From: Candidatus Magasanikiibacteriota bacterium | Lineage (GTDB): Bacteria; Patescibacteriota; Patescibacteriia; Magasanikbacterales; GWA2-37-8 | DNA length: 64,000 nt | Reading direction: 5' to 3' | Assembly (NCBI GenBank): GCA_023246715.1 | Contig: JAHFHZ010000001.1 | Location: forward strand, 48,571-112,570 | In this document: positions 15,989-37,925 of the stretch, piece by piece | Layout of the letters: every line of letters starts with the position of its first letter | Numbering within the stretch: the stretch's first letter is position 1 | The notes under the pieces: model-generated | Seen by the model: the letters and a program-made list of their open reading frames with translations, nothing else | Told to the model about the DNA's origin: nothing | The model's database searches: none | Position numbers and translations under genes: made by a program

Positions 15989-16005
15989 ATCTTAATTAAG
16001 GTATT

Positions 16006-16713
16006 TTAGAGTTCGCTTTTTTTGGTGAATAAAATACGCAGCGCAAAAGGCGCGTAGCGGAAGCGTTTCCAGGTATTCATCTTGGATACCCCTTCGGTTC
16101 GTTTACGCCAAATTGAAGGAATTTCGATTGCTTTGTACCCAAGCCTCAGCGGCTTAAGCGTGGTTTCCATAGCTATCTCATGCAATTCTCCCCACCAGTG
16201 TACTTCTTTGAGCAATCGGGCGTTGAATATTTTAAACCCGTAGGTCAGGTCGTGTAGTTTGGTGAAATACAAAATGCGAAACACAATTTGGAAACCCCGA
16301 TTCAAGACATAGGTAAGCGGATCGTATTTATACACAGCACCTCCTTTGATCCAACGGCTGGCCACGGCCAGATCGTAGCCCTGTTCGGCAGCTTTAATCA
16401 TTTTTGGTACAGTTGCCAGATCCATTTCACCATCGGCATCGAGCATGAGCACATGACTGCCAGTGACTAGTGTAAACGCTTGGCGATAAGCGCGGCCAAG
16501 TCCAGGGTTTTCTTTTTGCGTGTAGTGACGCAGGAAGGGGTAGATTTTTTCCAGTTCCTGACAAATTTCAAAAGTACGCTGGCTGGAGCGCGGCGACACA
16601 ATGATGATTATTTGGTGCAAAGCGCTGCTGTTCCCCGCTACCAGAGCGTGGACTGTTTTACGCAGCACCTCTTCTTCAGACCACACCGGAATTATTACCG
16701 AGAGTTTGATCAT
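16006..16713 (-). CDS. GT2 polyprenyl-phosphate glycosyltransferase (DPM1-like)
   Basis: MIKLSVIIPVWSEEE, LMLDADGE (DxD). The start was moved to the internal ATG to avoid a long overlap with fcl. Confidence 0.7.
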   Translation of the reverse strand: MIKLSVIIPVWSEEEVLRKTVHALVAGNSSALHQIIIIVSPRSSQRTFEICQELEKIYPFLRHYTQKENPGLGRAYRQAFTLVTGSHVLMLDADGEMDLATVPKMIKAAEQGYDLAVASRWIKGGAVYKYDPLTYVLNRGFQIVFRILYFTKLHDLTYGFKIFNARLLKEVHWWGELHEIAMETTLKPLRLGYKAIEIPSIWRKRTEGVSKMNTWKRFRYAPFALRILFTKKSEL

Positions 16714-17680
16714 ATAACACTTTTTTCTTACGATCAGCTTCAATTTTATGGGCGAGGTACCAGGTAACGGTTTTTTGCAGGCCGTCACGCAGTGTTTGTC
16801 GTGGTTCCCAGCCGAGTTTTGTTTTCATTTTCGTGACGTCAAGAATTTTTTTGAGCTGGCCATCTGGTTTGCTGGTGTTCCAGGTTATCTCTCCTTGGTA
16901 AACAACTACCTCGCGAATCATTTCGGCTAACTCCCGAACGCTACAACCATTAGTGGTGGTTAAGTTCATTGGTGCGCCATCATCGTATTTTTCGGTGGCG
17001 AGCACGATCCCGTTGGCCGCATCTTCAACATACAAAAAATTGCGAGTTGGCGCTCCGGTTCCCCACACTTCCACAAATGGCATTTTGTCCATTTTAGCTT
17101 CCACAAAACGCCTGATTAGCGCACCTACGACGTGCGAACTGCCAAAATCAAAATTATCGCCCGGGCCATACATGTTGGTGGGAATTAAAAAAATAGAGTG
17201 AAATCCGTATTGTTTTTTGTAAGCCCACGATTGAACAGATAAAATACGCTTCACGATGCCGTAATCAAGAGCGGTTTCATGGGGTGGTCCTGTCCAGAGA
17301 TCTTCTTCGACTAAAATATCTTTATTCAGATATCCGGGGTAGGCGCAATCTGATCCGATGATGACAAATTTTGCTACTTTGTTAACACGCGCCGCTTCAA
17401 TTAAATTCGTACTCATCATTAGATTTTCGTAGTAGATATTTCCTGGAAATTTTTCGTGGATAGCCATTCCGCCATAAAAGGCGGCACAATGGATAATAAT
17501 GTCAAATTTTTGTTCAGCCAGGTATTTTTCGGTGGCTGCTTGACGGGTAAAATCAACTTCGCTACGGTGCGGTGTTACTATGGCGCCGGAGCGTGGCAGC
17601 AGCCGCTCTCGAATTTGGCTCCCCAGGAATCCGTTGCCACCAGTAATTAATATTTTTTTGTTTTGGAAAAAATTGGTCAT
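16676..17680 (-). CDS. fcl: GDP-L-fucose synthase (GDP-4-keto-6-deoxymannose 3,5-epimerase/4-reductase), or the ColC homologue
   Basis: KKILITGGNGFLGS; SHVVGALIRRFVEAK...VEVWGTGAPTRNFLYVEDAA matches the Fcl/GMER signature region. Confidence 0.8.
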   Translation of the reverse strand: MTNFFQNKKILITGGNGFLGSQIRERLLPRSGAIVTPHRSEVDFTRQAATEKYLAEQKFDIIIHCAAFYGGMAIHEKFPGNIYYENLMMSTNLIEAARVNKVAKFVIIGSDCAYPGYLNKDILVEEDLWTGPPHETALDYGIVKRILSVQSWAYKKQYGFHSIFLIPTNMYGPGDNFDFGSSHVVGALIRRFVEAKMDKMPFVEVWGTGAPTRNFLYVEDAANGIVLATEKYDDGAPMNLTTTNGCSVRELAEMIREVVVYQGEITWNTSKPDGQLKKILDVTKMKTKLGWEPRQTLRDGLQKTVTWYLAHKIEADRKKKVLYDQTLGNNSGVV

Positions 17681-19140: not shown

Positions 19141-21030
19141 ATGTGTGGTATCGCAGGCTTTGTAGGAGCGGGGGATAGGAGTGTGCTAGAAAAAATGACC
19201 ACCACTATTAAGCATCGAGGGCCTGATGACGTGGGCTTCTTATTGCGCGAGAATGTCGGTTTTGGGCACCGGCGCTTGAGCATTATTGATTTAAGCCCGA
19301 CCGGCCACCAGCCCATGGGCAGCGCTGATGGTCGAATACAAATGGTGTTCAACGGTGAAATCTATAATTTTTTGGAGTTAAAAAAAGATTTAATTGCCAA
19401 AGGGTATGCCTTTCGGGGCGGGAGCGATAGCGAAGTGATTATCGCTTTGTACCAGGAATACGGCACAGAATCATTCTGTAGGCTTAATGGCATGTTCGCG
19501 ATTGCTCTCTATGATTTTAAGGATCGTGAGTTAGTGTTGGTGCGAGATCGGTTGGGTAAAAAACCTTTGTATTATAGCCAGATTGGCGGTGTGTTTTTGT
19601 TTGGCTCGGAATTGAAGGTTTTGTTAGAGCACCCGGCATTTGTTAAAAAATTGAATTTAGCTGCCGTTAACACTTATTTTGCGTGCGATTATATTCCCAC
19701 ACCAGCTACTATTTTTGAAGGCGTTTTTAAATTAGAGCCCGGCACCTATTTAAGTCTGAAGAGTGGCCATATCCAGAAGTATAAATTTTGGGATATCAGC
19801 TTTGATGCTGACCCTGAAGCAGTCCGTTTATCTAAGGAAGGCAAGGTAAATGAAATTTTTTCGGCGCTGGATGCACGCCTGGAATCAGCGGTACATAAGC
19901 GTTTGATGGCGGATGTTCCCTTAGGCGTTTTTTTAAGTGGGGGTATTGATAGTTCGACCGTGGCTTATTACGCACAAAAAAATAGCGTCCAGAAAATAAA
20001 AACTTTTTGTATTGGTTTTAAGGACCAAAGTTATGATGAAAGCTCTTATGCGCGCCAAGTAGCCAAGTTTTTGGGAACCGAGCATCACGAAGCGATTCTT
20101 GAGCCTAAGGAATGTCTGGAGCTTATACCCCGGCTAGCTGATTTGAGCGACGAGCCAGTGGCAGATTATTCTTTTATTCCGACGTATTTATTATCGCGTT
20201 TCACTCGACAGCACGTTACTGTTGCGCTTGGCGGGGACGGAGGGGACGAGCTATTTTTTGGGTATGGAACCATTGTGGCCGAACGAATCGCCCAGGCTGT
20301 ACGTTTTTTCCCTGTGGCAACAGATATTGGTTTGATGCTATTGGGAATGCTGCCGGTTTCGCACGCTCGATTTAATACGCGTTTTAAACTGGAGCGATTT
20401 TTGGCTGGGCTTAATTCGCCAAAATTATATCGCCATCAGGCGTGGCTTGGCACGTTTGATGCCTCAGAGCGAAACAAATTATTTACCCGACAAGCGCAGC
20501 AACAATTGGCCAGCACAAATGGCTATACTCACCTGGATAATTATGGAATTACGACTAAAAATTTTCACCGGTTTAATGAATTGATTTACTTGTATTTACG
20601 GACGTATCTGATGGATCAGGTGTTGGTAAAAGTTGACCGCGCCAGCATGGCCAACTCTTTAGAAGTTCGAGCGCCATTTTTAGATTATGAATTCGTTGAC
20701 TTCGTTAATTCACTTTCGTATACTTATAAAATTAAAGGTTTACAGACTAAATGGCTGCTCCGCAAGTTAATGCATGGTAAATTACCCCCCGAAATAATTC
20801 GGCGTCCCAAAGCTGGTTTTGGCATTCCGTTGTCGGATTGGTTAAGTGCTGAATTAAAGCCGCTGATGCTGGAATTATTAGCCCCGGAGAATCTCCGCCC
20901 AACCGGTCTGTTTAATCCCGATTATACCCAGGGGATTATTGCCCAGCACCTGGAGCGGCGCAAAGATTGCCGTAAGGAATTGTGGAATTTAATAACCTTT
21001 CAATTGTGGGCCAAAAAATGGCTGATTTAG
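19141..21030 (+). CDS. asnB: Asparagine synthetase-like glutamine amidotransferase (second AsnB paralogue)
   Basis: MCGIAGFVG, SGGIDSSTV PP-loop, 629 aa. Confidence 0.85.
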   Translation: MCGIAGFVGAGDRSVLEKMTTTIKHRGPDDVGFLLRENVGFGHRRLSIIDLSPTGHQPMGSADGRIQMVFNGEIYNFLELKKDLIAKGYAFRGGSDSEVIIALYQEYGTESFCRLNGMFAIALYDFKDRELVLVRDRLGKKPLYYSQIGGVFLFGSELKVLLEHPAFVKKLNLAAVNTYFACDYIPTPATIFEGVFKLEPGTYLSLKSGHIQKYKFWDISFDADPEAVRLSKEGKVNEIFSALDARLESAVHKRLMADVPLGVFLSGGIDSSTVAYYAQKNSVQKIKTFCIGFKDQSYDESSYARQVAKFLGTEHHEAILEPKECLELIPRLADLSDEPVADYSFIPTYLLSRFTRQHVTVALGGDGGDELFFGYGTIVAERIAQAVRFFPVATDIGLMLLGMLPVSHARFNTRFKLERFLAGLNSPKLYRHQAWLGTFDASERNKLFTRQAQQQLASTNGYTHLDNYGITTKNFHRFNELIYLYLRTYLMDQVLVKVDRASMANSLEVRAPFLDYEFVDFVNSLSYTYKIKGLQTKWLLRKLMHGKLPPEIIRRPKAGFGIPLSDWLSAELKPLMLELLAPENLRPTGLFNPDYTQGIIAQHLERRKDCRKELWNLITFQLWAKKWLI

Positions 21031-21038
21031 TAGTTTGT

Positions 21039-21743
21039 ATGCCGGAAATCTCGATTATTATCCCAATTTATAACGAACAAGCAATTTTGCATAAAGAAGT
21101 TTTAAGCATCGTCAGCGAGCTTAAAAATTTTTTGCCGCAGATAAACTACGAAATTATTTTGGTTGAAAATGGCAGCGTAGACGCGACCCGTTCAATCGCC
21201 GAGGGGCTAACACGATCTTACCCAACAATTCGTTTGGTACATTTACCGGCAGCCAGCTATGGCCGCGCGCTTAAGCATGGAATTAATGAAAGCCGGGGAG
21301 TGTATACGGTGCTGTTTAATATTGATTTTTGGGATGTGCCCTTTATCGTAAAGGCGCTCGAGATAATGCGCTACGGAAAAATGGATATGGTGGTTGGTTC
21401 CAAGACAATGAAGGGGGCGGAAGATACTAGGCCGTTTTTGCGCCGTCTGATTACGCAATTGTTCAATAAATTACTACGGTTAATCTTTGGCTTTACCGGT
21501 ACGGACACGCATGGAATTAAACTTCTGCGTCAGGATAAAATTTTGCCGGTGGTGGCCGCCTGTCAGACGGAGCGCGAAATTTTTGATACCGAGTTCGTGT
21601 TGCGTTCGCAACGAATGGGTTTGCTTACGGCAGAAATCCCCGTCGTTTGCCAGGAAAAGAGAGCCACGGTGTATCACATTAGCAAACGGATACCTCGAAC
21701 AATTAAAGATTTAATCGTGTTATTTTTTTCATTGCGCCGTTGA
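21039..21743 (+). CDS. GT2 glycosyltransferase (DPM1-like)
   Basis: MPEISIIIPIYNEQ, LFNIDFWD. The start was taken at the first ATG after the asnB stop. Confidence 0.65.
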   Translation: MPEISIIIPIYNEQAILHKEVLSIVSELKNFLPQINYEIILVENGSVDATRSIAEGLTRSYPTIRLVHLPAASYGRALKHGINESRGVYTVLFNIDFWDVPFIVKALEIMRYGKMDMVVGSKTMKGAEDTRPFLRRLITQLFNKLLRLIFGFTGTDTHGIKLLRQDKILPVVAACQTEREIFDTEFVLRSQRMGLLTAEIPVVCQEKRATVYHISKRIPRTIKDLIVLFFSLRR

Positions 21744-21746
21744 TGT

Positions 21747-23189
21747 ATGCCTTTGCTGATTGCTTGGAGTAAACAATGGTGGCCGGCAGTGCTCGCTGGG
21801 ATTTTTTTTCTTGGCGCGGTTGCGTATGGTTTTCCCGACAGTCCTGCGCCATGGTTTGATCAAGGGATTAATTTGGGCATAGCCAAAACCTACGCCTTGG
21901 ATGGCGTGTATAGCTTGGGGCTTGGGGCTGGAAAGGTGGTTGAAAACAGGCCGCTGATGATCAGCACCAATTACCCCCTGCTCGCTTGGATTACTCTGGG
22001 GTTTAAGCTTTTTGGTGTTGGTTTAGCGCAAGCTCAACTAGTAATGCTTGCTTTTTTAGTAGTTTTTTTGTTTGTCAGTTTTTTATTGGCTCGTCGGCTA
22101 TTTGGCGGGCAATCGGCTTTTTTGGCCATAGGATTGACGGTTACTTTTCTACCTTTTTACGGGAACGGGTTAAGCGGGGGTTTAGGCGAAGTGCCAGGGT
22201 TGGCTTACCTATTTTTAGCTTTGTTATTTTTTGATCGCCGAGAATCCCCCGTGACTGCTCTGGCCGGGATTTTTTTTGGTCTGGCGATTACGACGAAAAT
22301 TTTTTATTTATTGCTGCTGCTGCCAGTGCTGCTGGTGGAAATTATTTTTGCTTGGCGTGAACGTGTGGTCCCCTGGAAGCGGTGGTTTTGGTTGTCGGTG
22401 GGGATAGTGCTGCCCTTGATTATTTGGGTTCGAACTTTGTTGCCCGGGGGCTTTAGTTCAACTGGCTTGCAAGAGGCTCTGGCGTATTACCGCAACCCGT
22501 ATCGCCTGGTAGAATCAACCTTCCTTAAAAATATTTTTTCCTTTGCTACCGAGAGCACTTTGGCGCACTTTGCCTTTTTAGGCGCGATTGTATACGGAGG
22601 TTTTTTTACGCAAAAAAGATGGCGAACCGTTCAGCGGGCTGAGTTGATTTTATTATTATTTGTTCCGTTGAATTTAATTTATTTCCTTAAAGGACCAGGC
22701 TGGTTCAGGTATTTATTCCCGGCGCATTTGGTTTTATTGGTTATGTCCCCGGGCATGCTCTCTGCGCTCATTGAGCGCTGGCGGCCTAAGCAAATTGCCG
22801 GTTGGTTGGTGATAGGAGTGCTGGGAATACTTATTGCCGCGCAGACAATTCATTTTTTTAGGCATCGTTCCGATAAACTTTATTATAATCCCGCCCCGCG
22901 CGCGCAGGCGGCCGAATTATCCGCGGAGATCCCGGCTACAGCTGATTTGTACCTCGTTGATCATCCCGAATTATGGTTTTTATTGCCGGGTACGGGCGCA
23001 CGACAGTTTATTCATATGAATCCCTACACGGCTTTTGGAGATGATTTCTTTACTTTAGGCAATTATCCGCGTTATGTTGTGGTTGATCGGCCCGAGCAGG
23101 CTTTTAAAGAGGCGGACTATGCCATTTTTTCTAGGCGCTATGCACCATATAAGAATTTTGGCTTATATACAGTTTTTTTATTGCGTTAG
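21747..23189 (+). CDS. Polytopic membrane protein, GT-C-like glycosyltransferase
   Basis: About 12 hydrophobic helices. Follows the GT2 gene. Confidence 0.5.
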   Translation: MPLLIAWSKQWWPAVLAGIFFLGAVAYGFPDSPAPWFDQGINLGIAKTYALDGVYSLGLGAGKVVENRPLMISTNYPLLAWITLGFKLFGVGLAQAQLVMLAFLVVFLFVSFLLARRLFGGQSAFLAIGLTVTFLPFYGNGLSGGLGEVPGLAYLFLALLFFDRRESPVTALAGIFFGLAITTKIFYLLLLLPVLLVEIIFAWRERVVPWKRWFWLSVGIVLPLIIWVRTLLPGGFSSTGLQEALAYYRNPYRLVESTFLKNIFSFATESTLAHFAFLGAIVYGGFFTQKRWRTVQRAELILLLFVPLNLIYFLKGPGWFRYLFPAHLVLLVMSPGMLSALIERWRPKQIAGWLVIGVLGILIAAQTIHFFRHRSDKLYYNPAPRAQAAELSAEIPATADLYLVDHPELWFLLPGTGARQFIHMNPYTAFGDDFFTLGNYPRYVVVDRPEQAFKEADYAIFSRRYAPYKNFGLYTVFLLR

Positions 23190-23195: not shown

Positions 23196-24968
23196 ATGAA
23201 TACCTATACTTGGAAAATTTTTTTGTTTCGGAGCATTTCGTTTTTTCGCACCCACGCCTTTGGATTGCTATTAGCGGGAGCGGTTACGTTGGCGGTGAGC
23301 CTGCCTCCGGTTATTTGGCATTTTTCGACTGATTTCCGAGGCGTGGAGATGCTTAAAACTAACACCGAAGCGCACTATGTCGCTCAAGTACAGGAGGTAT
23401 ATGATGGCCACCCACGTTTGGGCAACACTTTTTTTCAAGGTCTAAAAAATTCTGATTACTTGTTTCCGCCACTATCTCCAAATTTGGTTGCTTTATTTGG
23501 CAAGCTTATTGGGGTAGGGGCAGTCGGCGCGGTTATTGTAGGGCGTTTTTTGTTTGTATTTTTGTTGGCTTTGGCAATTTACGGTTTCGCGTATCGTCTG
23601 TTTGGCAGCACTCGTTGGGCGGCGGTGGCAGCCCCGTTCATTATTTTGGGCTATGCGTTGTTTGATCCACACACGCTCTTGCGTTTATTTTCTTTTGGCC
23701 AAGGGGCTGGCGAGGCTACCTTCATTGATTATGGTCGGCCCATTAACCCCCAAATTAGTTCATTATTCTTTTTTGGGTATCTATATTTTTTCTGGCAGTT
23801 TTTGATTGTTCCATCTCGCCGTACCTTGTTGGGAGTGGTTTCGGCCGTATTGCTGGGCGCTAGTTTTTACGTGTACTTATTTACCTGGACTTATTTATTT
23901 ACCCTCAATGGTTTTTTATTTTTATTATTTTTACTGCGTAAAGATTTTGAGAGTGTTAAACGAGTTGTGGCGGTTACTATTGCGGCCGCGGTACTTGGCA
24001 TACCGTACGCATTTAATTTGTTGGCGGCTAGCCAGAATACCTGGTATGCCGAAACGGCAGTACGTTTTGGGTTTGTGGCTTCCCACGCGCCCAATATTAG
24101 CCGGTTGGTGCTTGGTTTAATAGTCGTTTATTTATTTGCGAAGTCTTTGCTCACCACGAAACAGCGTGTTTTTTTTGGGTCATTTTTTGTAACAGCGTTG
24201 GTGGTGGCCAATGAACAAATTATAACCGGTAAATATATTTTTAATCATCACTATCACTGGTATTACACCACACCGCTCGTGGCCCTAGGCGTACTCGCGT
24301 TTTTTGCTCAATGGTTTAAGGCCCATCCCGACAAAAAGCGGGTTGAAGTTTTGGCGGTAGCGCTGTTGGTTGCATTATTTTTTGTACAGGGAATCAAGGT
24401 GCAGGTTTTGTCGTATCAAGCATCCAAGGAATCAATGGTTGATGAGCAGCGTTACGCCCCAGTGATTGATTGGTTTAACCATGAAAGCCCCCTAGACAGC
24501 GTGATTTTTGCCCCCGCCCCGTTGCTACGTTTGCTTCCCGCGGTTACGCATAATAATGTGTACTATTACGGCACTGGTATCTACACTCTTGTTTCAAATG
24601 AACGGCTCATGGATACTTATTTGGCGCAGATCTATTTACAGCGTGTGCCACAAGTGGATATCCGTCTGTATCTAGACGAGCATCAGGCAGAAATTGCGGG
24701 GTGGGTGTTTGGGTACACTTTCAGTTTTCAGCCCGGAGTATGCAGCACCTGCGTGCCAGAGGATTTTTTGGATAAGGCCGCCGAACGTTACCGACAGCTT
24801 ACTGACGCCAATTTTGCATCGTTTTTACTTAAATACCCTTTGGATTATATCGTGACCGATGAAAAAACCGACCCGGGTTGGAGAGTGGATCGGTTTGGTT
24901 TCGTTCCGGTTGCTAAATTCGGCACGCTGACTATTCATTCGGCCGCGGCTCTTCTTGCCGGGCCATAA
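23196..24968 (+). CDS. Large polytopic membrane protein (590 aa). Possibly GT-C, or an O-antigen polymerase/ligase-like protein.
   Basis: Many TM helices and a C-terminal soluble domain. No diagnostic motif recognised. Confidence 0.35.
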   Translation: MNTYTWKIFLFRSISFFRTHAFGLLLAGAVTLAVSLPPVIWHFSTDFRGVEMLKTNTEAHYVAQVQEVYDGHPRLGNTFFQGLKNSDYLFPPLSPNLVALFGKLIGVGAVGAVIVGRFLFVFLLALAIYGFAYRLFGSTRWAAVAAPFIILGYALFDPHTLLRLFSFGQGAGEATFIDYGRPINPQISSLFFFGYLYFFWQFLIVPSRRTLLGVVSAVLLGASFYVYLFTWTYLFTLNGFLFLLFLLRKDFESVKRVVAVTIAAAVLGIPYAFNLLAASQNTWYAETAVRFGFVASHAPNISRLVLGLIVVYLFAKSLLTTKQRVFFGSFFVTALVVANEQIITGKYIFNHHYHWYYTTPLVALGVLAFFAQWFKAHPDKKRVEVLAVALLVALFFVQGIKVQVLSYQASKESMVDEQRYAPVIDWFNHESPLDSVIFAPAPLLRLLPAVTHNNVYYYGTGIYTLVSNERLMDTYLAQIYLQRVPQVDIRLYLDEHQAEIAGWVFGYTFSFQPGVCSTCVPEDFLDKAAERYRQLTDANFASFLLKYPLDYIVTDEKTDPGWRVDRFGFVPVAKFGTLTIHSAAALLAGP

Positions 24969-26514
24969 TAAACATATTGTCTCGTAAATTCAGCGGAATA
25001 GAGAGTCGGTTCAGCCGGCTTTTTTGTAGGTAATTAGATATTTTTCGCCAGATTGCCTGGTGGCGAATAGTATACATAATTTGGAAGATGTAAGCCGGTT
25101 GGAATTTTTTGCCAATATTTCCGATTTCAATCACGGTGAAGTCGTGTTTATTTAAGATCATCGACAGATTTTTGGGATTGAAAAGCCGGATGTGTTCGGG
25201 TGGAATAATTAAAGGCCAAAAACGCCCTAAAATTTTGGCGACGGCGCTCCCGGCATTTGGCATATTCATTACCACAATTCCACCCGGTTTAAGTAATTTG
25301 GTTATTTTGAGTAAGGTTAAATTGGGGTCGGGCAGGTGTTCAAATACGTCCCAGAGAGTTATAACATCGAACGAATGCGGAGCGAAGACGGCATTGTCTA
25401 GGGTACCGGTTTGCACCGCTAGCCCACGGCCCCGAGCGGCCGCAGCCGCGTAGTCGGAAATTTCTACTCCGGCCACCTGCCACCCCCGCTGTTTTGCTAT
25501 GGTTAAAAAAGATCCGGTGGCAGCGCCGATGTCTAGAATACTGCCCTTGTTAGGATGTTTTGCTTCAATTTTATCTAAATATATTTGCAACGTGACATTT
25601 TCCGCTTGTTTGGTTTGCTCATAATCAACATAACCAAAGCCTTGCGTGGCGCCAGTAAAATAATCCGCGGAGTAGAGGGCGTTAAATTGATCAGGAAGTG
25701 GCGCGATAAAAATCAGCTGGCAAGCAACGCAGCGCCTTACTTTGCAGTTATTTTTGGTAAACCAGAAACGTGTATTCAGCGAGGCGCAAGCGGGACAAGG
25801 CAACGCGCCGCCTGGTTGCCAACGAATCAAATTCCAGGGCAGCAGCACTCCTTCCTGGATAATACGTAGGGAAATTTTTGATTCACCGCTGAGGCGACTT
25901 TTAAATAGGATGGGTAGTTCTACGATTCGTTTGCCGAGCTTCCAGATTTTGTATTTTAGATGCATTAAAAAGGCGTAACCAGAAGGATCGATTTCCGAAA
26001 AATTAATTTCGCGTAGCATCTTTGTGTTTAAGCACATGAATCCGCTGGTGCAATCGGTGATTGGCAGACCGGTAACCAAACGGCAATACCAGTTACCGCC
26101 ACGGCTTAAAATTTTTCGCCATAGTTCCCAACCTTCAATGCCGCCTTCGCCTGTGTAGCGGGAGCCGATTACCAGGTCGTGATTAGCGCCCAGACGAATT
26201 AATTCTGGCAGGTACGACGGGTCATGCGATCCGTCTGCATCCACGGTACAGATGTGGGTAAATCGGCCCTCGGTTAAAATTTTGCTGAAAGCATCAGAAT
26301 ATGCCCGGCCCAAGCCTTCTTTTTTAGGTCGAGAATAAAGTATTAAACGAGGAAATTGCGCGGTAAGTTCAGTTACCGCCGCTGCTGTACCATCGGGTGA
26401 GTTATCGTCGATAACCATTACCGAAACGTGGGGAACGGTAGCAAAAATTTTAGGGATCACTGCCCGGATGTTTTCTTTTTCATTATACGTGGGCAGCAGA
26501 ATTATCGTTTCCAT
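24931..26514 (-). CDS. Bifunctional GT2 glycosyltransferase (DPM1-like) / zinc-ribbon / class I SAM methyltransferase fusion
   Basis: N-terminus METIILLPTYNEKENI...DDNSPDGT. Middle CPACASL...CVACQ zinc ribbon. C-terminus ILDIGAATGSFL methyltransferase motif I. Confidence 0.7.
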   Translation of the reverse strand: METIILLPTYNEKENIRAVIPKIFATVPHVSVMVIDDNSPDGTAAAVTELTAQFPRLILYSRPKKEGLGRAYSDAFSKILTEGRFTHICTVDADGSHDPSYLPELIRLGANHDLVIGSRYTGEGGIEGWELWRKILSRGGNWYCRLVTGLPITDCTSGFMCLNTKMLREINFSEIDPSGYAFLMHLKYKIWKLGKRIVELPILFKSRLSGESKISLRIIQEGVLLPWNLIRWQPGGALPCPACASLNTRFWFTKNNCKVRRCVACQLIFIAPLPDQFNALYSADYFTGATQGFGYVDYEQTKQAENVTLQIYLDKIEAKHPNKGSILDIGAATGSFLTIAKQRGWQVAGVEISDYAAAAARGRGLAVQTGTLDNAVFAPHSFDVITLWDVFEHLPDPNLTLLKITKLLKPGGIVVMNMPNAGSAVAKILGRFWPLIIPPEHIRLFNPKNLSMILNKHDFTVIEIGNIGKKFQPAYIFQIMYTIRHQAIWRKISNYLQKSRLNRLSIPLNLRDNMFIMARQEEPRPNE

Positions 26515-26539: not shown

Positions 26540-28015
26540 TTAGCGAATATTTTTTGCGATGATCAGCAGTGTCGCAAATGGTCCGGTATTGAATAATCGA
26601 AAAGCCAACCAGATGCCCGTCAGGTAGGCAATACCCTGGCCTATCAGTAACATACAAAAGTGAAGAGTCGAGAGAGATAAAAGGGTTTTCCCCCAGAACA
26701 GATATGGCAGGCAGATTATCAAGCTCAGCAAGAGTGGGGTAATAATTTTTGCCAGCATATCACGGTACTTTATGAGCGTCAATTGAGTTAAAGAGCGTAA
26801 GTTTAGGCAAAAAACAGGCAACATCCCGACTAATAACGCGCCAGCCGCGCCATTGATGCCCCAGCGGACTGTGGCCGGGATAATCAGGCTGGCAGTGGTG
26901 CAAATTTTAACAATCGTGAACCCGGTTTGAGCGCGAGGTTTGCCTAACGCGTTGGAAAGAGCCAGTACCAAGTCGTTGATATTGCCAAGAAAAAAATAGA
27001 AAAGAAATATGGATAGCGCGCTAGCCATTGGCAGCCAGGGCGTACCCAGTACGATCGTGACTAGCTTGTTTCCAACAAAGAGGGTTAAGAGGCAAATTGG
27101 AATTAGAAAAAAACCGATAATATCTAAATTTTTTAAAAAACCGTCGGTAATTTTTTGTTTATCGGTTTGAATTTTGGCAAAGGCGGAAAAACTAATTTGG
27201 TTGAGCATCGGGCCTAAAAAACCAGGGGCTACCGCGGCCATGCTTTTGGCTTTACTGTAAAGCCCCAGGCTGCTTAGGGTGGTGAGGCGGGCCACACTCG
27301 TGCTCTCTAGCAAGCCGTAGAGCTGATCTAGCCAGCTTTGGCCGACGATCCATTTGCTGTAATGGAATAACTCCCGGAGAATATTGAGGTTAAAAGATAG
27401 CCGTGGACGATAGGGGTGTAAAAAGTAGGTGATAATTGTTTGAGTGAGATAATAGGCGAGTTGGGCAAAAAATAAAACCCAGTATGATGGCCAGAGTAAC
27501 GCTCCCGCGATACTGACGATAATATAGGCAATTTCACGAACCAAATTACGGATAAAGATTTTTTTGAAATCTAACTCTTTGAATAAATAATTTTCTCCGA
27601 TGTTGCCTAAATTTAGGATAAGCATGAAAATCCCGCCCAAGCTGATGGCTAAGATAGCCTGCTCCCCATGCAGGAAACCGGCTAGCCAAGGCCCAACGGC
27701 AAGCACCACCACGAAAATAGCCAGGCCTTTGAGCACGTGGATTGTCCAGAGCGGGTTGAGAAATTTTTTAATGTCCCCCTCTTTTTGAATGAGCGCGCTG
27801 GCAAAACCGGTATCGGCGGTGGCATCTAAAAAGCGGGGCAGCAGAATAACCAGTCCCATTATGCCAAAATCCTCCGGCTTCAAGAGTCTAGCCAAAATAA
27901 AAAACGAAACCAAACCAAGGCATTTTTGGATCACATATCCGAGTGAAAGCCATTTACCGCTCTGAATTGATTTTTTTAGCACGCCTTCGGGGGGCGCAAT
28001 AGCGCTTGATTGCAT
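26540..28015 (-). CDS. wzx: Wzx-like oligosaccharide flippase (MOP superfamily polysaccharide biosynthesis protein)
   Basis: About 12-14 TM helices with PST-family topology. The start was taken at an internal ATG, leaving a 75-bp divergent intergenic region. Confidence 0.6.
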   Translation of the reverse strand: MQSSAIAPPEGVLKKSIQSGKWLSLGYVIQKCLGLVSFFILARLLKPEDFGIMGLVILLPRFLDATADTGFASALIQKEGDIKKFLNPLWTIHVLKGLAIFVVVLAVGPWLAGFLHGEQAILAISLGGIFMLILNLGNIGENYLFKELDFKKIFIRNLVREIAYIIVSIAGALLWPSYWVLFFAQLAYYLTQTIITYFLHPYRPRLSFNLNILRELFHYSKWIVGQSWLDQLYGLLESTSVARLTTLSSLGLYSKAKSMAAVAPGFLGPMLNQISFSAFAKIQTDKQKITDGFLKNLDIIGFFLIPICLLTLFVGNKLVTIVLGTPWLPMASALSIFLFYFFLGNINDLVLALSNALGKPRAQTGFTIVKICTTASLIIPATVRWGINGAAGALLVGMLPVFCLNLRSLTQLTLIKYRDMLAKIITPLLLSLIICLPYLFWGKTLLSLSTLHFCMLLIGQGIAYLTGIWLAFRLFNTGPFATLLIIAKNIR

Positions 28016-28090
28016 TTTTTCTTTTCCTATATTAGTATGTTTAAGTATAGTCGGTACCCCCCGTAACGTCAATTTTAGTTTTACTACGGT

Positions 28091-31219: not shown

Positions 31220-32326
31220 TTGAAAATGTCTATGAAGCGAATTTTGTTTCTGACCGAGACAATGAATCCGACTTCTGGTTGGGGCAGGATTGCTGACGAA
31301 ATCAGCCGGCGGCTGCCTGACCATGGTTTTGAGCCGGTGGTGCTAACGGAAGACAGCTCGGGATACTTAGGCAAACCATTGTTGCGTAATTCACTGGCCT
31401 CGCTTAAATCAACGCTACTTAATAGTTGGGGCGTTCGCCCCTACGCCAAGGATGCTGTCTTGGTACACGCGCTTGATGCGTATCCGTATGGAATTATTGG
31501 CGCTTTGGCGACGCTGGGCACGCGGGTGCCGCTCGTTATGACTACGGTTGGCACCTACGCCATTATGCCGCTCGAGAATAAAAAAATCCGACCGTTTATG
31601 CTGTGGGCTTTTCGGCGAGCAAAAATGCTTTTTCCGATTGTTAATTTTACCATTGCAGAAATAGCCAAACGTGCTTCGGGGCTGCCTCCCCAAAAACGAG
31701 TGTTGCTCGGGGTAGACCCGAGCCGCTTCCAGCTCGCTCCAATCACGCCAGGCGCAGCAGCGCCAATTTTGTTGAGCGTGGGCGCTTTAAAAAAGCACAA
31801 AGGGTATCATTACGTGATACCGGCTTTGGCAATCGTGAAAAAAACCTGCCCTTTGATACGATATTGTATCGTCGGTGATACTTCGGATACGGCGTATATT
31901 GATTTTTTGAAAGGGGAAATTAAAAAATACGGCGTTGAACAGAACGTGCAAATTTTAGGTAAAATTCCGGAAGGCGAAGTATTGGATCTGTACGGGCGCT
32001 GTTTGGCGTTTGTGTTAATTCCAGAAAATCATCCGACTAATTTTGCGGGTTTCCACCTTACGTATCTGGAAGCAAATGCCATGGGCAAACCGGTCATTGG
32101 AGCGAAAGGATACGGATCGGAAGAAGCCGTCCAGGAAGGAAGAACTGGTTTTTTAATCACGCCGGAAAAGCCCGAAGAAATCGCGGCAGTTATCGGCCGC
32201 CTGATTGTTGAACCGGTTTTGCGAGCTGAGCTGCGTGAGTATTCGCGAGCTTGGGCCGAAGAACTGACGTGGGATAAAACGGTCGCCCAATATGCCGCGT
32301 ATTACCGCGCGATACTTGGAGAATAA
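31220..32326 (+). CDS. Glycosyltransferase, GT4-like
   Basis: ...FHLTYLEANAMGKPVIGAKGYGSEEAV. Confidence 0.65.
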   Translation: MKMSMKRILFLTETMNPTSGWGRIADEISRRLPDHGFEPVVLTEDSSGYLGKPLLRNSLASLKSTLLNSWGVRPYAKDAVLVHALDAYPYGIIGALATLGTRVPLVMTTVGTYAIMPLENKKIRPFMLWAFRRAKMLFPIVNFTIAEIAKRASGLPPQKRVLLGVDPSRFQLAPITPGAAAPILLSVGALKKHKGYHYVIPALAIVKKTCPLIRYCIVGDTSDTAYIDFLKGEIKKYGVEQNVQILGKIPEGEVLDLYGRCLAFVLIPENHPTNFAGFHLTYLEANAMGKPVIGAKGYGSEEAVQEGRTGFLITPEKPEEIAAVIGRLIVEPVLRAELREYSRAWAEELTWDKTVAQYAAYYRAILGE

Positions 32327-33173
32327 TTTTTTAGAAGCAATATTTTATTTAAAACAGCCTGTCGAGGCGAAAGTATACTACCAGCCTATGCCCGAAGCGC
32401 CCGTACAACCCAAGCAGAATGACTGGAATTTTCAATGGGAGAATTTTTACGATGATTCTTTGTTTTTGTTTAAGGAATGGATTTTTCCGCATACTTTGGA
32501 AACCTTCCGGGGAAAGAGCGTGGTTGATTGCGGGTGCGGCGGAGGGCAACATATTAATTTTGTCGCCCCCTTTGCCCGTCGAATTATTGGCATTGACTTG
32601 AACACCACCGCAATCGCCCGTGAACACACCGAACAGCACAGCATTGTTTCGTTTGTGGAAGGGGATTTGGCCAGCGTGAGCCTGCCCGAACAGCATGACG
32701 TGGTTTATTGCATTGGCGTTTTACAACATACCACCAACCCGGACGCCACGTTCGCGAATATAAAAAAAATGGTCGCGTCGGGGGGGCGTTTAATGATCTG
32801 GTGTTATTCCAAAGAGGGTAACTGGCCTAATTGGCTTATTTTGGAACCCTTGAAACGTTGCTTTATCCTTAAATTACCTAAACGAGCATTACTGTATTTG
32901 GCTACGGCGCTGACCGCGCTTTTGTACCCTGTTATTTATACGCTGTATTTATTGCCGCTCAGGTTTTTGCCTTATTACGAATATTTTGGTAACTGGCGTA
33001 AATTATCGTTTGGACGGAATCGATTAAATGTCTTTGACAAACTGAACGCGCCCATCACTAATTTTATTACGCGAGTTCAAGTAGAACGTTGGTTTAATCA
33101 GGCTGAATTTTCGGATATCTTTATTGATCAGTATAAAGGAGTGAGTTGGCGTGCTTCGGGTGTTAAATTGTAA
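32292..33173 (+). CDS. Class I SAM-dependent methyltransferase (alternative start at 32388)
   Basis: VVDCGCGGGQH motif I. Ends in ...LMIWCY. Confidence 0.6.
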   Translation: MPRITARYLENNFLEAIFYLKQPVEAKVYYQPMPEAPVQPKQNDWNFQWENFYDDSLFLFKEWIFPHTLETFRGKSVVDCGCGGGQHINFVAPFARRIIGIDLNTTAIAREHTEQHSIVSFVEGDLASVSLPEQHDVVYCIGVLQHTTNPDATFANIKKMVASGGRLMIWCYSKEGNWPNWLILEPLKRCFILKLPKRALLYLATALTALLYPVIYTLYLLPLRFLPYYEYFGNWRKLSFGRNRLNVFDKLNAPITNFITRVQVERWFNQAEFSDIFIDQYKGVSWRASGVKL

Positions 33174-33177
33174 AAAT

Positions 33178-34629
33178 ATGCTTGCGGCATTTCGGAATTT
33201 CTATCAAGCCCAGCGCGTGCCAATTATTTTGTTCGTGACGGCATTTGTTTTTCACGCGGCCATGTCGGCTTATTTATACTATCGTTTTGGCGATTCGGTT
33301 TTATGGTTTCAAAATGAAGACGCGCAAGGGTACGTGGAATTGGCGCGTAACGTGCTTACCGGGCGAGGTTTTACCCATGACGGCGCTGCGCTCGCGATTC
33401 GTACCCCGGCGTGGCCGTTGATGCTATCTTTAGGTTTGCTTTTGCCCGGCTCCGCAACAGCAGCAATTTTATTTTTGCAGGTTGTATTGCTGGGGGCTTC
33501 GGGTATTATAATTTATAAAATAGGTGAGTTATTTTTTTCAAAATTTGCCGGGTTAATCGCCTCGACACTCTATATTGTTGAACCTTACTTAGCGATGAAT
33601 ACGGCTTTGGCAACCACTGAAGTTTTTTTTAATTTTGGTTTATTGATAACGGTGTATTGTTTTGGACGTTGGTATCTTCGGCGCGACTCCCAGGCTTGGC
33701 TGGCTGCTTCGGGGCTTTGGCTGGGACTTTGTATTCTTATTCGGCCAGTGGCCTTGTATCTGCCGTTTTTATTTTTGATTTTTATCATCATTCGCCTCCT
33801 GTATTTTAAAAAGAGCACTCTGTCATTACTGGTTAGTTTGTTTATCCTAAGCGCCACTACCACATTGGTGGTGGCGCCATGGTCGATTCGCCAGTATATC
33901 CGTTTTGGTACTCCGCGCATTACCAATATTGACGCGATGTTATTATACTTTCGGGTGGCGCCGCTGGTTATCGGCGCTGAACAAGGCATTAGCTATAACG
34001 CGGCGATTCAGCAGTTGCACGGCGAATTGGAGCGTTCGGTTGAGCTTTATAATCCTGATGATTTAAATGCTAATTTTGTTCATTATGAATTCATGAGCGC
34101 AAGAGTGGCGGAATTGGTTCGTCAACGCCCAGATGTGGTAGCAAAAAGTTATTTGGCTTCAATGGTACCGGCCCTGTTTGGTACGGGTTACGAATATATG
34201 TTGGAAGAAGTGCTTGGTTTAGAGCGCGCCACGCAACGCCCCAGCTACTCCGCGCTGTTAGCTCGGGGAGATTTCGCTGCTTATTTTAGGGCTCTTCGCC
34301 AAATCGATATTTTTCAAGCTGTTTTATTAACTGGCGCGCTGTTGTGGATGGCTGCTTACGTATTTATTGTTTATTACGTAACCCGCAGGTTTGTTTGGAG
34401 AGAACGTTTTTTGAGTTTAGTGCTGCTCGGAGGCCTGCTTGGTTATTTTGTTTTTTTTGCGTTGGGCCCTGCCAGCCACGCCCGTTATCGCTTACCTACA
34501 TTTCCGTGGTGGTTTCTACTTATTGGCGCCAGCCTTGATTTTATTAAGCAAAAGCGTATACTAGGCTCACGCAAAGAGGCTGCTTCTTTTGGCCTTAATA
34601 AGCCTTTTATCCCCGGCCAGACCCCTTAA
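33178..34629 (+). CDS. Polytopic GT-C membrane glycosyltransferase (ArnT/PMT-like)
   Basis: Loop-1 motif ...DAQGYVELARNVLTGRGF and about 12 TM helices. Immediately followed by a DPM1-like GT2. Confidence 0.6.
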   Translation: MLAAFRNFYQAQRVPIILFVTAFVFHAAMSAYLYYRFGDSVLWFQNEDAQGYVELARNVLTGRGFTHDGAALAIRTPAWPLMLSLGLLLPGSATAAILFLQVVLLGASGIIIYKIGELFFSKFAGLIASTLYIVEPYLAMNTALATTEVFFNFGLLITVYCFGRWYLRRDSQAWLAASGLWLGLCILIRPVALYLPFLFLIFIIIRLLYFKKSTLSLLVSLFILSATTTLVVAPWSIRQYIRFGTPRITNIDAMLLYFRVAPLVIGAEQGISYNAAIQQLHGELERSVELYNPDDLNANFVHYEFMSARVAELVRQRPDVVAKSYLASMVPALFGTGYEYMLEEVLGLERATQRPSYSALLARGDFAAYFRALRQIDIFQAVLLTGALLWMAAYVFIVYYVTRRFVWRERFLSLVLLGGLLGYFVFFALGPASHARYRLPTFPWWFLLIGASLDFIKQKRILGSRKEAASFGLNKPFIPGQTP

Positions 34630-34634
34630 TTTAT

Positions 34635-37682: not shown

Positions 37683-37689
37683 TTGCAGT

Positions 37690-37923: not shown

Positions 37924-37925
37924 GT

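Follow-up and report, generated by a model that had tools for sequence, protein, structure and literature searches.

A recurrent fusion of a polyprenyl-phosphate sugar synthase-like glycosyltransferase with a zinc-ribbon methyltransferase, and its candidate role in making a methylated lipid-linked sugar

Results

A glycosyltransferase, a zinc ribbon and a methyltransferase in one open reading frame

The window analyzed here is a stretch of 64,000 nucleotides from contig JAHFHZ010000001.1 of a Candidatus Magasanikiibacteriota bacterium. It contains a gene for a 527-aa fusion protein, a membrane protein gene upstream of it on the same strand, and a gene that converges on its 3′ end. The features, with positions in the window, are as follows.

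24931-26514, minus strand: whole fusion gene, ATG start, 527 aa plus stop (GT2, Cys4 ribbon, class I SAM methyltransferase)
25816-26514, minus strand: DPMS/DPM1-like GT-A (GT2) domain, residues 1-233, including predicted amphipathic interface helices 131-148 and 218-231
25711-25803, minus strand: Cys4 zinc ribbon, residues 238-268 (C240, C243, C262, C265), modeled as a three-stranded beta ribbon
25579-25689, minus strand: family-specific aromatic motif, residues 276-312 (Y281..D-Y285-F286..G-F-G294-Y295..D-Y298..K302)
25126-25578, minus strand: class I (Rossmann) SAM methyltransferase core, residues 313-463 (motif I D328-x-G330-x-A-x-G334; E351; D389-V-x-E392-H393; W433...P-P439-E440-H441)
24931-25125, minus strand: C-terminal extension, residues 464-527 plus stop, basic (net +7) and aromatic-rich, with helices 473-484 and 487-497 and two strands
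26540-28072, minus strand: Wzx-type MOP-family membrane protein (PF13440, E 2.8e-64)
23196-24968, plus strand: convergent polytopic membrane protein, 590 aa, GT-C fold, unannotated
24931-24968, no strand: overlap of the 3′ coding ends of the two convergent genes, 38 bp, with an 8-bp GC hairpin; same overlap in L001

A sequence-only reading of this DNA had described a DPM1-like glycosyltransferase, a Cys4 ribbon and a class I SAM methyltransferase joined in a single frame. Pfam domains and conserved residues confirmed this as a genuine 527-aa gene. Both kinds of domain that the reading had proposed as a check were matched by Pfam: PF00535 (Glycos_transf_2) at residues 5-169 (E 2.9e-22) and PF13489 (Methyltransf_23) at residues 313-463 (E 2.3e-28). 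The motif I that it had spotted, ILDIGAATGSF, occupies residues 325-335. In the homologue alignment, the N-terminus, METIILLPTYNE, lines up with the start of the family consensus. The AF2 model of the protein has a mean pLDDT of 90.8 and a pTM of 0.66, with uncertain inter-domain geometry. No TM segment was detected in the fusion protein (KD19 maximum 1.45); human DPM1 is likewise TM-less.

A frame of this kind could also be produced by a sequencing or assembly frameshift that merges two separate genes, and two separate, overlapping genes do occur in many relatives. We give this explanation next to no credence. The same 527-aa gene, identical, is present in an independent ENA assembly (L001), and more than 60 full-length fused protein clusters from NCBI, JGI, ENA and Logan, at 36-59% identity, share its architecture, which shows that the fusion is not an assembly artefact. 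Furthermore, no frameshift was found, the junction residues 226-240 align among homologues without disturbance of the frame, and the query sits in a tree clade of 20 sequences, all of them fused. Where source names are given, the fused clusters come from Parcubacteria, Paceibacterota or Kaiserbacteria.

The GT2 and the methyltransferase form a conserved, translationally coupled gene pair, whose fusion is optional and recurrent. To the question raised earlier, whether relatives conserve the fusion or split it, the answer is both: many keep it, and many others carry two overlapping genes. In at least 17 loci, the split form consists of a GT2 gene of about 235 aa and a zinc-ribbon methyltransferase gene of about 290 aa, which lie on the same strand and overlap by 4-34 nt. 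On a rough tree, the two forms do not separate but intermingle, and at least 12 changes are needed. The GT2 subfamily of the fusion is also found independently joined to a canonical GxGxG methyltransferase without a ribbon (P0090), to an FkbM-type methyltransferase (PF05050; P0093) and to PMT_2 (P0078). In another relative (P0038), a GtrA module of four helices separates the GT2 from the zinc-ribbon methyltransferase, two GT-Cs of the 590-aa family flank the gene, and no Wzx is nearby. The position of GtrA between the catalytic halves supports a cytoplasmic location of both, beside a lipid-sugar flippase. Orthologous methyltransferase genes in L089, L104, L110, L116 and L117 have no GT2 within reach, indicating that the methyltransferase is not strictly dependent on the GT2.

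The GT2 half is a predicted polyprenyl-phosphate glycosyl synthase

The GT2 half has a GT-A fold and matches the GT2 family model. Its best match in both sequence and structure is PfDPMS, followed by ArnC and GtrB. The metal/donor motif DAD (D92-A-D94) matches D89/D91 of PfDPMS, and the nucleotide-binding Asp, D37, matches its D39. Across the 52 homologues in which we scored residue conservation, D37 and D94 do not vary, and D92 is kept in at least 90%. R119, R133 and S137, also invariant, align with PfDPMS R117, R131 and S135, which bind the Dol-P phosphate and are described as a conserved feature of bona fide DPMSs (PMC5526996). The Arg and Lys of the A-loop are likewise kept, and helices 131-148 and 218-231 are predicted to be amphipathic (hydrophobic moments 0.57 and 0.48), with residues 134-147 reaching 0.71, the highest value in the protein. 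The GT-A fold, the DAD motif, the Arg/Arg/Ser triad and the A-loop Arg/Lys, along with two predicted interface helices, are common to the fusion and the dolichyl/polyprenyl-phosphate mannose synthases (PfDPMS, 5mlz; human DPM1; bacterial Ppm1-type GT2s). A PfDPMS construct that stops at residue 229, the position matching the end of the GT2 half, is still membrane-targeted and fully active (PMC5526996), and this delta230-352 construct is TM-less, as is the fusion. Unlike the DPMS/DPM1 enzymes, the fusion carries a zinc-ribbon SAM methyltransferase at its C-terminus. The assignment of the GT2 half as a polyprenyl-phosphate glycosyl synthase is a prediction, and a well-supported one.

Of the PfDPMS sugar contacts, D89 and H94 are kept as D92 and H97, and K178 is replaced by Ala. 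The exchanges of PfDPMS Q93 and K178 for S96 and A181 are common to methyltransferase-free bacterial homologues. Scores against NCBIfam equivalog models stayed below their cut-offs (AglJ, 53 bits vs 325; PpgS, 37 vs 370). No mapped donor or acceptor position differs among 3 fused, 26 methyltransferase-adjacent and 77 methyltransferase-free GT2 homologues. That the donor pocket is the same as in methyltransferase-free homologues favors methylation after transfer, on the polyprenyl-phosphate sugar.

The methyltransferase half is probably active on a sugar

The core of the second half shows the class I hallmarks of a glycine-rich loop, an acidic residue and a motif IV Asp. D328, G330, A332 and G334 of motif I and D389 of motif IV are invariant in the 52 homologues, and E351, after strand 2, is at least 90% conserved. 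A loss of SAM-binding residues, which the sequence-only reading had named as counter-evidence, is therefore not what the domain shows. By sequence, the core is closest to uncharacterised generic methyltransferases (3cc8, E 2.8e-19; 1vlm), and it has weak matches to UbiG- and PE-N-methyltransferase-like lipid methyltransferases. Such matches would suit a half that methylates a lipid or a protein, or one that serves as a SAM-sensing or structural module regulating or oligomerizing the GT2. We consider this highly improbable: neither the SAM motif nor the E-H pair shows any variation, whether the genes are fused or split, which argues for catalysis, and the conserved placement in an operon with a lipid-sugar synthase and a GT-C, together with the recurrent fusion of other methyltransferase classes to the same GT2, points to the sugar pathway. 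As judged from these residues and this context, the methyltransferase half is probably active, and probably on a sugar.

Beyond the generic enzymes, the closest structures are those of the NDP-sugar methyltransferases TcaB9, KijD1 and MtmC. The PPEH of the fusion aligns with the catalytic Y-x-E-H segment of this class (YLEH), and the titles of PDB entries show that E224 and H225 of TcaB9 have been targets of mutagenesis. In contrast to this agreement in the core, the zinc and C-terminal domains of these enzymes (PF08421 + PF13489 + PF08484) have no match in the fusion, and hhalign aligned the methyltransferase core alone. No match to PF08421 was found at E ≤ 1 in 15 family members, the Cys4 ribbon standing at the equivalent position, and none to PF08484 at E ≤ 1 among family members; in the fusion, just 64 residues follow the methyltransferase core. 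This basic, amphipathic extension stands where TcaB9-type enzymes have PF08484. Its helix 487-497 has a hydrophobic moment of 0.67, and K469, Y475 and N513 are invariant in the 52 homologues, whose C-terminal consensus is ..IARKK; the last seven residues, EEPRPNE, are lineage-specific and lie past the usual family C-terminus. The fusion thus differs from TcaB9, KijD1 and MtmC in its short basic C-terminus and in being joined to a lipid-sugar synthase. Their substrate is nucleotide-linked, whereas that of the fusion is probably lipid-linked.

That the nearest solved relatives act on nucleotide sugars is a point against a lipid-linked acceptor. In a rival order, the methyltransferase would work first on the nucleotide sugar, either C-methylating an NDP-4-keto sugar in the manner of TcaB9, KijD1 and MtmC or adding an O-methyl group, and the GT2 would then load the methylated sugar onto polyprenyl phosphate. 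We regard this order as decidedly unlikely. No family member matches PF08421 or PF08484 at E ≤ 1, and the presence of the basic amphipathic extension in place of the latter counts for methylation after transfer. The GT2 active site is the same as in the 77 methyltransferase-free homologues at every mapped position, so that nothing suggests it has adapted to a modified donor. Moreover, the dehydratase and aminotransferase neighbors are not kept beside the fusion in relatives.

The ribbon follows the pattern C240-P-A-C243 ... C262-V-A-C265, with C240, C243 and C265 invariant and C262 at least 90% conserved in the same 52 homologues. Its strands in the AF2 model are 248-254, 257-262 and 268-270. 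The family matches are weak: DUF2387 at residues 240-266 (E 2.8e-4, under the gathering score) and generic zinc-ribbon models only. Between ribbon and methyltransferase core lies the aromatic motif, in which Y281, Y285, F286, Y295 and Y298 are invariant and G294 and K302 nearly so (52 homologues). Standalone methyltransferases also possess it. Residues 276-312 are a candidate substrate lid.

A GT-C partner and a candidate flippase

The convergent 590-aa protein is well supported, as to enzyme class, as a GT-C-fold glycosyltransferase, of a family that has no Pfam model. Orthologues directly adjoin the GT2/methyltransferase in at least 13 other loci, and at least 12 contigs of matching size are common to the match lists of the two. 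The GT-C is a conserved partner of the pair and no bystander, a relationship that had been missed earlier. In other relatives, YfhO-like or PMT_2 GT-Cs adjoin the fusion instead. A GT-C transferase is thus encoded alongside the synthase.

As the sequence-only reading had stated, the fusion is co-oriented with a Wzx gene, which is its immediate upstream neighbor on the minus strand at a distance of 25 nt. The true start of this gene is probably the ATG at 28015: a promoter-like site lies on the TTG start of the ORF, and homologue alignments begin at residue 28. In L169 and L170, the gene just upstream of the fusion is likewise an orthologue of this Wzx (42-48% identity). Within the window, the fusion has no GtrA or SMR gene as a neighbor; L002 has a separate GtrA gene about 7 kb downstream. 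The Wzx-type protein is a candidate flippase of the module for the fusion's lipid-sugar. The classical substrates of Wzx-type proteins, however, are polyprenyl-diphosphate oligosaccharides and not monophosphate monosaccharides; this one may serve the larger glycan cluster instead.

The cluster itself suggests a further possibility. The window holds a very large set of glycan genes, with many GT1/GT4 enzymes and a Wzx, and given its many other methyltransferases and glycosyltransferases, the methyltransferase half may act on another cytoplasmic intermediate of the same surface glycan, with the GT2 merely placing it at the membrane. One such intermediate would be the non-reducing end of a polyprenyl-diphosphate oligosaccharide, capped or terminated as by WsaE or WbdD. 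The existence of orthologous methyltransferases without an adjacent GT2 is in line with this reading, as is WsaE, whose methyltransferase domain, fused to GT domains, adds a 2-O-methyl group to the rhamnose at the end of a lipid-linked glycan (PMC2943079). Nevertheless, we hold it to be rather unlikely, because the tight GT2-methyltransferase-GT-C unit recurs in otherwise different neighborhoods, because the methyltransferase of P0038 is fused to GT2 and GtrA between GT-Cs and away from any Wzx, and because three unrelated methyltransferase classes are fused to the same GT2 subfamily, which makes membrane anchoring alone hard to credit. The hallmarks of terminator systems are an ABC transporter and a coiled-coil ruler; no ABC transporter was found among the window ORFs of at least 150 aa.

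Discussion

A model for the module

We propose a four-step model, to which we give an even chance, in which the fusion is a cytoplasm-facing peripheral bifunctional enzyme within a three-component extracytoplasmic glycosylation module. In the first, well-supported step, the DPMS-like GT2 would dock on the inner membrane face via its amphipathic interface helices and load polyprenyl phosphate with a hexose taken from an ordinary sugar nucleotide, yielding a polyprenyl-P-sugar; mannose from GDP-mannose is our default guess. In the second, we infer that the zinc-ribbon methyltransferase methylates the lipid-bound sugar at the cytoplasmic face, most likely by O-methylation with the conserved E440/H441 pair as general base. 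The methylated lipid-sugar may then be flipped by the co-transcribed Wzx-like MOP protein or by a GtrA module such as the one inserted between the catalytic halves in one relative. In the final step, well supported as to enzyme class, the adjacent 590-aa GT-C would hand the sugar on, outside the membrane, to an acceptor at the cell surface. The most likely effect of the fusion is to channel the lipid intermediate between its two active sites.

The earlier suggestion that the fusion makes a methylated lipid-linked sugar, or methylates its product immediately, stands as the best-supported model on the basis of gene context, conserved residues and topology. Its methyl acceptor would, by elimination and context, be a lipid-linked monosaccharide. 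The surface of these cells is probably decorated with a sugar that is methylated and built on a lipid carrier. That the CPR surface is built in part from a methylated polyprenyl-P monosaccharide transferred outside by a new GT-C family is a tentative proposal, which we place just short of an even chance.

Relation to known systems

Three-component systems of a lipid-sugar synthase, a flippase and a GT-C are the general bacterial route for extracytoplasmic addition of sugars to surface polymers. The known edits of the lipid-linked monosaccharide are deformylation (ArnD), deacetylation (NaxD) and epimerization (DprE1/2). A built-in methyltransferase would extend this list by methylation, and we know of no described case of methylation at the lipid-linked monosaccharide stage. 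As in GtrB/GtrA/GtrC, CsbB/GtcA/YfhO, ArnC/ArnEF/ArnT and the pentofuranose systems (PMC11127046), synthase, flippase candidate and GT-C occur together here, and the likeness extends to the GtrA module within P0038 and to the YfhO- or PMT_2-type GT-Cs beside the fusion in relatives. The present module differs from those systems in that the synthase contains a SAM methyltransferase or is translationally coupled to one, in that the GT-C comes from a family without a Pfam model, and in that the adjacent flippase candidate is Wzx-type rather than GtrA/SMR.

WsaE of Geobacillus stearothermophilus (PMC2943079) and WbdD of E. coli O8/O9a (PMC11127046) resemble the fusion in combining a methyltransferase with a GT2-type domain in one soluble or peripheral protein and in working on a polyprenyl-linked glycan at the cytoplasmic face. 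The polymer that both of them cap, at its non-reducing end, is diphosphate-linked and exported through an ABC transporter, whereas the GT2 of the fusion is of the DPMS type, a monophosphate-sugar synthase, and has a GT-C partner. We rejected a chain terminator of the WsaE/WbdD type as a description of the fusion on account of this DPMS-type GT2 and the lack of an ABC-transporter domain among window ORFs of at least 150 aa. Another parallel is AglP of Haloferax volcanii, which acts on a lipid-linked glycan. The likeness is at the level of the pathway, AglP being a SAM-dependent methyltransferase in dolichol-phosphate-based glycosylation (PMC3871713). In contrast to the fusion, it is a stand-alone archaeal enzyme for the hexuronic acid of an oligosaccharide, with neither synthase fusion nor zinc ribbon.

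If the model is true, it would describe, as far as we know, the first SAM-dependent methylation at the level of the lipid-linked monosaccharide donor, and a new GT-C family with a methyl-sugar donor. It would also offer a simple biochemical route to O-methyl sugars on the cell surface of CPR bacteria; to our knowledge, the envelopes of these uncultured, host-dependent organisms are almost unstudied. If the methyl acceptor is something else, an ordinary multi-domain glycan enzyme remains. In addition, a GT-C family without a database model is now tied to a specific donor-making enzyme, which makes both proteins tractable for heterologous reconstitution.

Overlap of the convergent gene ends

The overlap of the fusion with the convergent GT-C gene measures exactly 38 bp, as had been read from the sequence. 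Its hairpin (z-score -1.86) has no T-run and was not called terminator-like. Because the last seven residues of the fusion exceed the family C-terminus, and because the corresponding overlap in close relatives is just 4 nt or absent, the 38-bp overlap is probably incidental.

Integrity of the fusion gene

Three adjoining genes are at issue:
24931-26514 (-): gene starting with ATG, encoding a 527-aa protein that joins a GT2 glycosyltransferase, a Cys4 ribbon and a class I SAM methyltransferase (MT)
26540-28072 (-): Wzx, a MOP protein, directly upstream of the fusion gene
23196-24968 (+): 590-aa membrane protein, convergent with the fusion gene

The ORF listing confirmed that the 527-aa protein is encoded by a single ORF, and Pfam recovered the GT2, ribbon and MT proposed in the sequence-only reading: Glycos_transf_2 at residues 5-169 (E = 2.9e-22), a weak zinc-ribbon match below the gathering score at 240-266, and Methyltransf_23 at 313-463 (E = 2.3e-28). 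The motif I ILDIGAATGSF is present at residues 325-335. The description of the GT2 as DPM1-like also held, the nearest solved protein by sequence being the dolichyl-phosphate mannose synthase of Pyrococcus furiosus, PfDPMS (5mlz; E = 2.2e-28 over residues 2-233). The upstream gene on the same strand is indeed Wzx-like (PF13440, E = 2.8e-64), and the 3′ overlap with the convergent ORF is exactly 38 bp, as had been claimed.

The 527-aa gene recurs unchanged, 38-bp overlap included, in an independent ENA metagenome assembly (L001). Protein search returned the query's own entry and over 60 full-length clusters, 36-59% identical, in which all the domains recur. These were drawn from NCBI, JGI, ENA and Logan and, where the source names an organism, always come from Parcubacteria, Paceibacterota, Kaiserbacteria or Patescibacteria. 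Checks of the query for a frameshift and for loss of SAM-binding residues found neither defect; both are excluded because the gene recurs identically, has full-length homologues and retains the SAM residues in an alignment of 52 sequences. An assembly artefact is likewise ruled out by the identical second assembly and by the position of the query inside a clade that is entirely fused.

The query runs seven residues (EEPRPNE) past the usual family C-terminus. The convergent overlap can form an 8-bp GC hairpin (z = -1.86), which the scan did not call terminator-like. The overlap as a shared bidirectional terminator is unsupported, given a weak hairpin without a T-run and relatives with an overlap of only 4 nt (L170) or none (L169). 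We treat the overlap as incidental.

Fused and split forms in relatives

Whether the fusion is conserved in relatives or split into two genes had been raised as a check, and both states were found. Proteins of ~290 aa consisting of ribbon and MT only were also among the matches to the query. For one such cluster, P0085, three independent assemblies have one gene arrangement in common, comprising a 233-aa GT2 gene (52% identical to query residues 1-230), an MT gene whose start overlaps the GT2 gene by 25 nt, and a gene for a 582-aa membrane protein immediately downstream of the MT gene. We next used the MT half as seed and scored the ORFs of the 80 best metagenome loci with HMMs from our own alignments, counting as orthologous any MT of at least 300 bits in MT-half scoring. 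A GT2 gene lies immediately upstream of the MT gene on the same strand, overlapping it by 4-34 nt, in 14 of the loci with an orthologous MT, and likewise overlaps it from immediately upstream in L002, L009 and L011; a few orthologous MTs lack a GT2 within the sequence available. None of the 80 loci is fused, which reflects sampling and permits no estimate of frequency. A scan of genome contigs with the full-length alignment yielded mostly GT2-only homologues from many phyla, together with three loci covering both halves. A candidate fusion outside CPR, in a Gemmatimonadetes MAG (L051), was rejected for its weak, generic MT match (33 bits).

Neighbour-joining of 95 MT halves gave a rough tree, without support values, in which fused and split forms are interleaved with at least 12 state changes, and the query sits in a 20-sequence clade whose members are all fused. 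This pattern, indicative only, suggests that the pair may have been fused and split repeatedly during evolution.

The GT2 half resembles an active truncated DPMS

Across the 52 full-length fusion homologues, the GT2 half conserves the DAD motif, G117-S-R119, R133, S137, D154 and G210-x-S-K213. We mapped PfDPMS onto the query by sequence alignment to 5mlz (chain index = native number + 22), taking residue roles from PMC5526996. The PfDPMS residues that bind the Dol-P phosphate, R117, R131 and S135 (PMC5526996), correspond to query R119, R133 and S137, all of which are invariant. Further equivalences are E12 to E12, D39 to D37, R63 to R62, D89/D91 to D92/D94, H94 to H97, G122 to G124 and, in the A-loop, R202 to R207 and K208 to K213; the positions that differ are PfDPMS Q93 (S96 in the query) and K178 (A181). 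No TM helix was found in the query. PfDPMS lacking residues 230-352 is still targeted to the membrane via its interface helices and has wild-type activity, and the GT2 half of the query ends at the equivalent point (PMC5526996). The predicted interface helices of the query are amphipathic, and the hydrophobic moment of the whole protein peaks at residues 134-147. In the genome scan, members of this TM-less GT2 subfamily (40-48% identity) occur widely, in many bacterial phyla. From these comparisons we conclude that the GT2 half is a putative polyprenyl-phosphate glycosyl synthase. The query reached no NCBIfam equivalog cut-off. GDP-mannose should be available in the organism, since the window encodes a GDP-mannose 4,6-dehydratase.

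At each of the 16 mapped positions, fused (3), MT-adjacent (26) and MT-free (77) homologues agree, and the pocket of the GT2 shows no sign of having adapted to a modified donor. A181 and S96 as pocket adaptations to a methylated sugar were rejected, as S96 and a small amino acid at 181 are also found in all 77 MT-free homologues.

In other Patescibacteria-type sequences the same GT2 subfamily acts as a highly modular unit, fused to PMT_2 GT-C, an N-terminal GDP-mannose-dehydratase-like epimerase, GT1, an FkbM-type MT or a ribbon-less class I MT (clusters P0078/P0080/P0083, ~805 aa; P0088/P0095, 569 aa; P0089, 613 aa; P0093, 523 aa; P0090 group, 454-458 aa).

The methyltransferase half

In the same 52-sequence alignment, three ribbon cysteines (C240, C243 and C265) are invariant and the fourth, C262, reaches at least 90% conservation. 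The MT half retains intact, invariant SAM-binding motifs, its conserved residues being D328, G330, A332, G334, E351, D389, E392 and H393. Two motifs are specific to the family, Y281..D-Y-F..G-F-G-Y..D-Y..K302 and W433...P-P-E-H441. By sequence, the MT core is nearest to the uncharacterised MTs 3cc8 and 1vlm, followed by the NDP-sugar C-methyltransferases TcaB9 and KijD1 (~E 1e-9 to 1e-8). By Foldseek, KijD1, TcaB9 and MtmC align over 300-328 columns, covering nearly the entire ribbon and MT half. Profile comparison aligned P-P-E440-H441 with Y-L-E-H of a TcaB9-type protein from L170 (probability 96.7%). We take the Y-L-E-H-type segment of TcaB9 to hold catalytic residues, in agreement with the mutants Y222F, E224Q and H225N named in PDB entry titles; a residue-by-residue equivalence with the PPEH segment of the query would follow from the alignment. 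Membership of the TcaB9 family was nevertheless rejected, as no member of the query family matches the zinc domain PF08421 or the C-terminal PF08484, and the likeness is confined to the MT core and general layout. The MT core is followed instead by 64 residues that are basic (net +7), aromatic-rich and partly amphipathic.

An unannotated GT-C family accompanies the GT2-MT pair

The 590-aa ORF has no Pfam match even at E≤10. Its product has ~9-12 hydrophobic segments with a soluble domain of ~180 aa after them, and shares 24% identity (E = 3e-30) along 554 residues with the homologous 582-aa protein encoded downstream of the split pair. A search with the 590-aa protein returned 56 proteins, none with a Pfam domain, and at least 12 of them come from contigs equal in length to those of fusion homologues. 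Compared with known GT-Cs, it matched AglB (21.7), Pmt4 (20.1), STT3B (18.7) and ArnT (17.6), followed by ALG12, PglB, AftB and PimE, in every case at ≤14% sequence identity. The family conserves E67..D70-G71 just after TM1, which we take to be the site of the catalytic acidic motif in GT-C enzymes. Orthologues lie directly downstream of the MT in nine loci (L002, L009, L011, L092, L099, L102, L105, L115 and L139) and directly upstream in L094. The 590-aa neighbour is a partner of the GT2/MT and belongs to an unannotated GT-C family; in other relatives, a YfhO-like or PMT_2 GT-C adjoins the fusion.

The closest fused relatives, L169 and L170 (55-56% identity to the query), have the same arrangement as the window. 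Wzx (42-48% identity) lies directly upstream of the fusion on the same strand in L170 and one Capsule_synth gene away in L169, and a convergent 590-family GT-C (43-48%) follows the fusion in both. Wzx proteins classically flip diphosphate-linked oligosaccharides, and Wzx in the window may serve the rest of the glycan cluster despite its conserved place beside the fusion in the close clade. A 664-aa cluster, P0038, has a GtrA domain between GT2 and ribbon-MT. GtrA, a small membrane module found with GtrB-type synthases, is considered to be their flippase. The number of helices between the halves of P0038 is even, and both catalytic halves therefore lie on the same, cytoplasmic side. At its locus, L171, 590-family GT-Cs flank the fusion on both sides and no Wzx was found nearby.

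Several minor features were seen at these loci. At 28015-28072 (-), the TTG start listed for Wzx (28072) probably lies upstream of the true one: a promoter-like TTGACG-17-TATACT (10/12 matches) covers it, an ATG (residue 20) lies at 28015, and homologue alignments start only at residue 28. Within a few kb of the module, L170 encodes a TcaB9-type C-methyltransferase (9-1286, -; PF08421+PF13489+PF08484) and a 556-aa protein in which a UDP-glucose-dehydrogenase-like domain is fused to a methyltransferase domain (2592-4262, -). In L101, a standalone orthologous Zn-MT (5905-6789) shares 26 nt with the convergent gene of a 552-aa, 7-TM protein, a second convergent overlap of this MT family with a polytopic membrane protein; the 552-aa protein did not match the 590-family profile.

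Stage of methylation

The MT uses SAM and has no signal peptide or TM helix, and therefore acts in the cytoplasm, before the sugar is flipped. It may act on some other intermediate of the glycan cluster, as glycan synthesis occupies the entire 64-kb window, which encodes many GTs and several other methyltransferases. A functional link to the GT2 is supported by the finding that this GT2 subfamily has also been fused independently to MTs of two further classes: P0090 has a canonical GxGxG MT lacking the ribbon, and P0093 an FkbM-type MT. If the MT acts on the sugar handled by the GT2, its acceptor is either an NDP-sugar or a polyprenyl-P-sugar. We favour methylation of the lipid-linked sugar on three grounds taken together: a donor pocket that shows no change, the absence of the C-terminal domain that binds nucleotide sugars, and a C-terminal extension suited to a membrane. 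The predicted structure of the query has a pTM of 0.66, with the orientation between domains uncertain. Precedents exist for methylation in a dolichol-phosphate-based pathway (AglP; PMC3871713) and for an MT fused to GT domains (WsaE; PMC2943079).

The fusion is best interpreted as combining the synthase and an editing enzyme of a three-component extracytoplasmic glycosylation system in Patescibacteria. The full model, in which the synthase product is methylated on the lipid and passed to a GT-C system, has in our estimate about an even chance of being correct. Systems of this kind are already known; the proposed built-in methylation step and the unannotated GT-C family would be new. In the limited literature collection searched, we found no paper on a GT2-MT fusion or on Patescibacteria surface glycans.

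Other glycan genes in the window

Many GT1, GT2 and GT4 genes, several other methyltransferases, nonulosonic-acid genes and at least five GT-C genes are present in the window, the GT-C genes (the 590-aa protein included) within 35 kb. Small TM-less GT2s (235-283 aa) are repeatedly paired with PMT_2-type GT-Cs (442-492 aa), and one further set includes an MT:
8918-10931: GT2 (8918) and GT-C (9603)
14648-16788 (-): GT2 (16006) and GT-C (14648)
20982-23189: GT2 (20982) and GT-C (21747)
32292-35486: MT (32292), PMT_2 (33151) and GT2 (34635)
This repetition suggests that a single organism with a small genome has several lipid-sugar/GT-C modules working in parallel.

Two asparagine-synthase-like genes (glutamine amidotransferase + Asn_synthase; 12109-13977 and 19141-21030) lie inside the glycan cluster, and a similar gene adjoins the module in L169; they may encode sugar-acid amidotransferases. 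Within the glycan region, Pfam at E≤1e-5 matched none of six ORFs of 235-563 aa (6041-7732; 40522-41784; 43357-44286, -; 51865-53028; 55491-56732; 63208-63915, -), which might include further unannotated membrane enzymes like the 590-aa GT-C. Genes for a 603-aa protein with an FkbH_N domain, for a short-chain dehydrogenase and for an MBOAT acyltransferase are grouped at 35871-40579, which suggests that a surface polymer is modified with acyl or glyceryl groups.

The right-hand third of the window (44383-62725) looks like a nonulosonic-acid and amino-sugar biosynthesis region. It encodes a PseB-like dehydratase (44383), a carbamoyltransferase (47797), a CMP-transferase-type protein (51034), two NeuB proteins (54429 and 60883) and HisH/HisF-like pairs (53036/53661 and 56754/57361), together with GNAT, PIG-L deacetylase and formyltransferase genes. 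Among these sugar genes sits an unusual 768-aa fusion of metallo-beta-lactamase, rhodanese and class V aminotransferase (cysteine-desulfurase-like) domains at 58198-60504.
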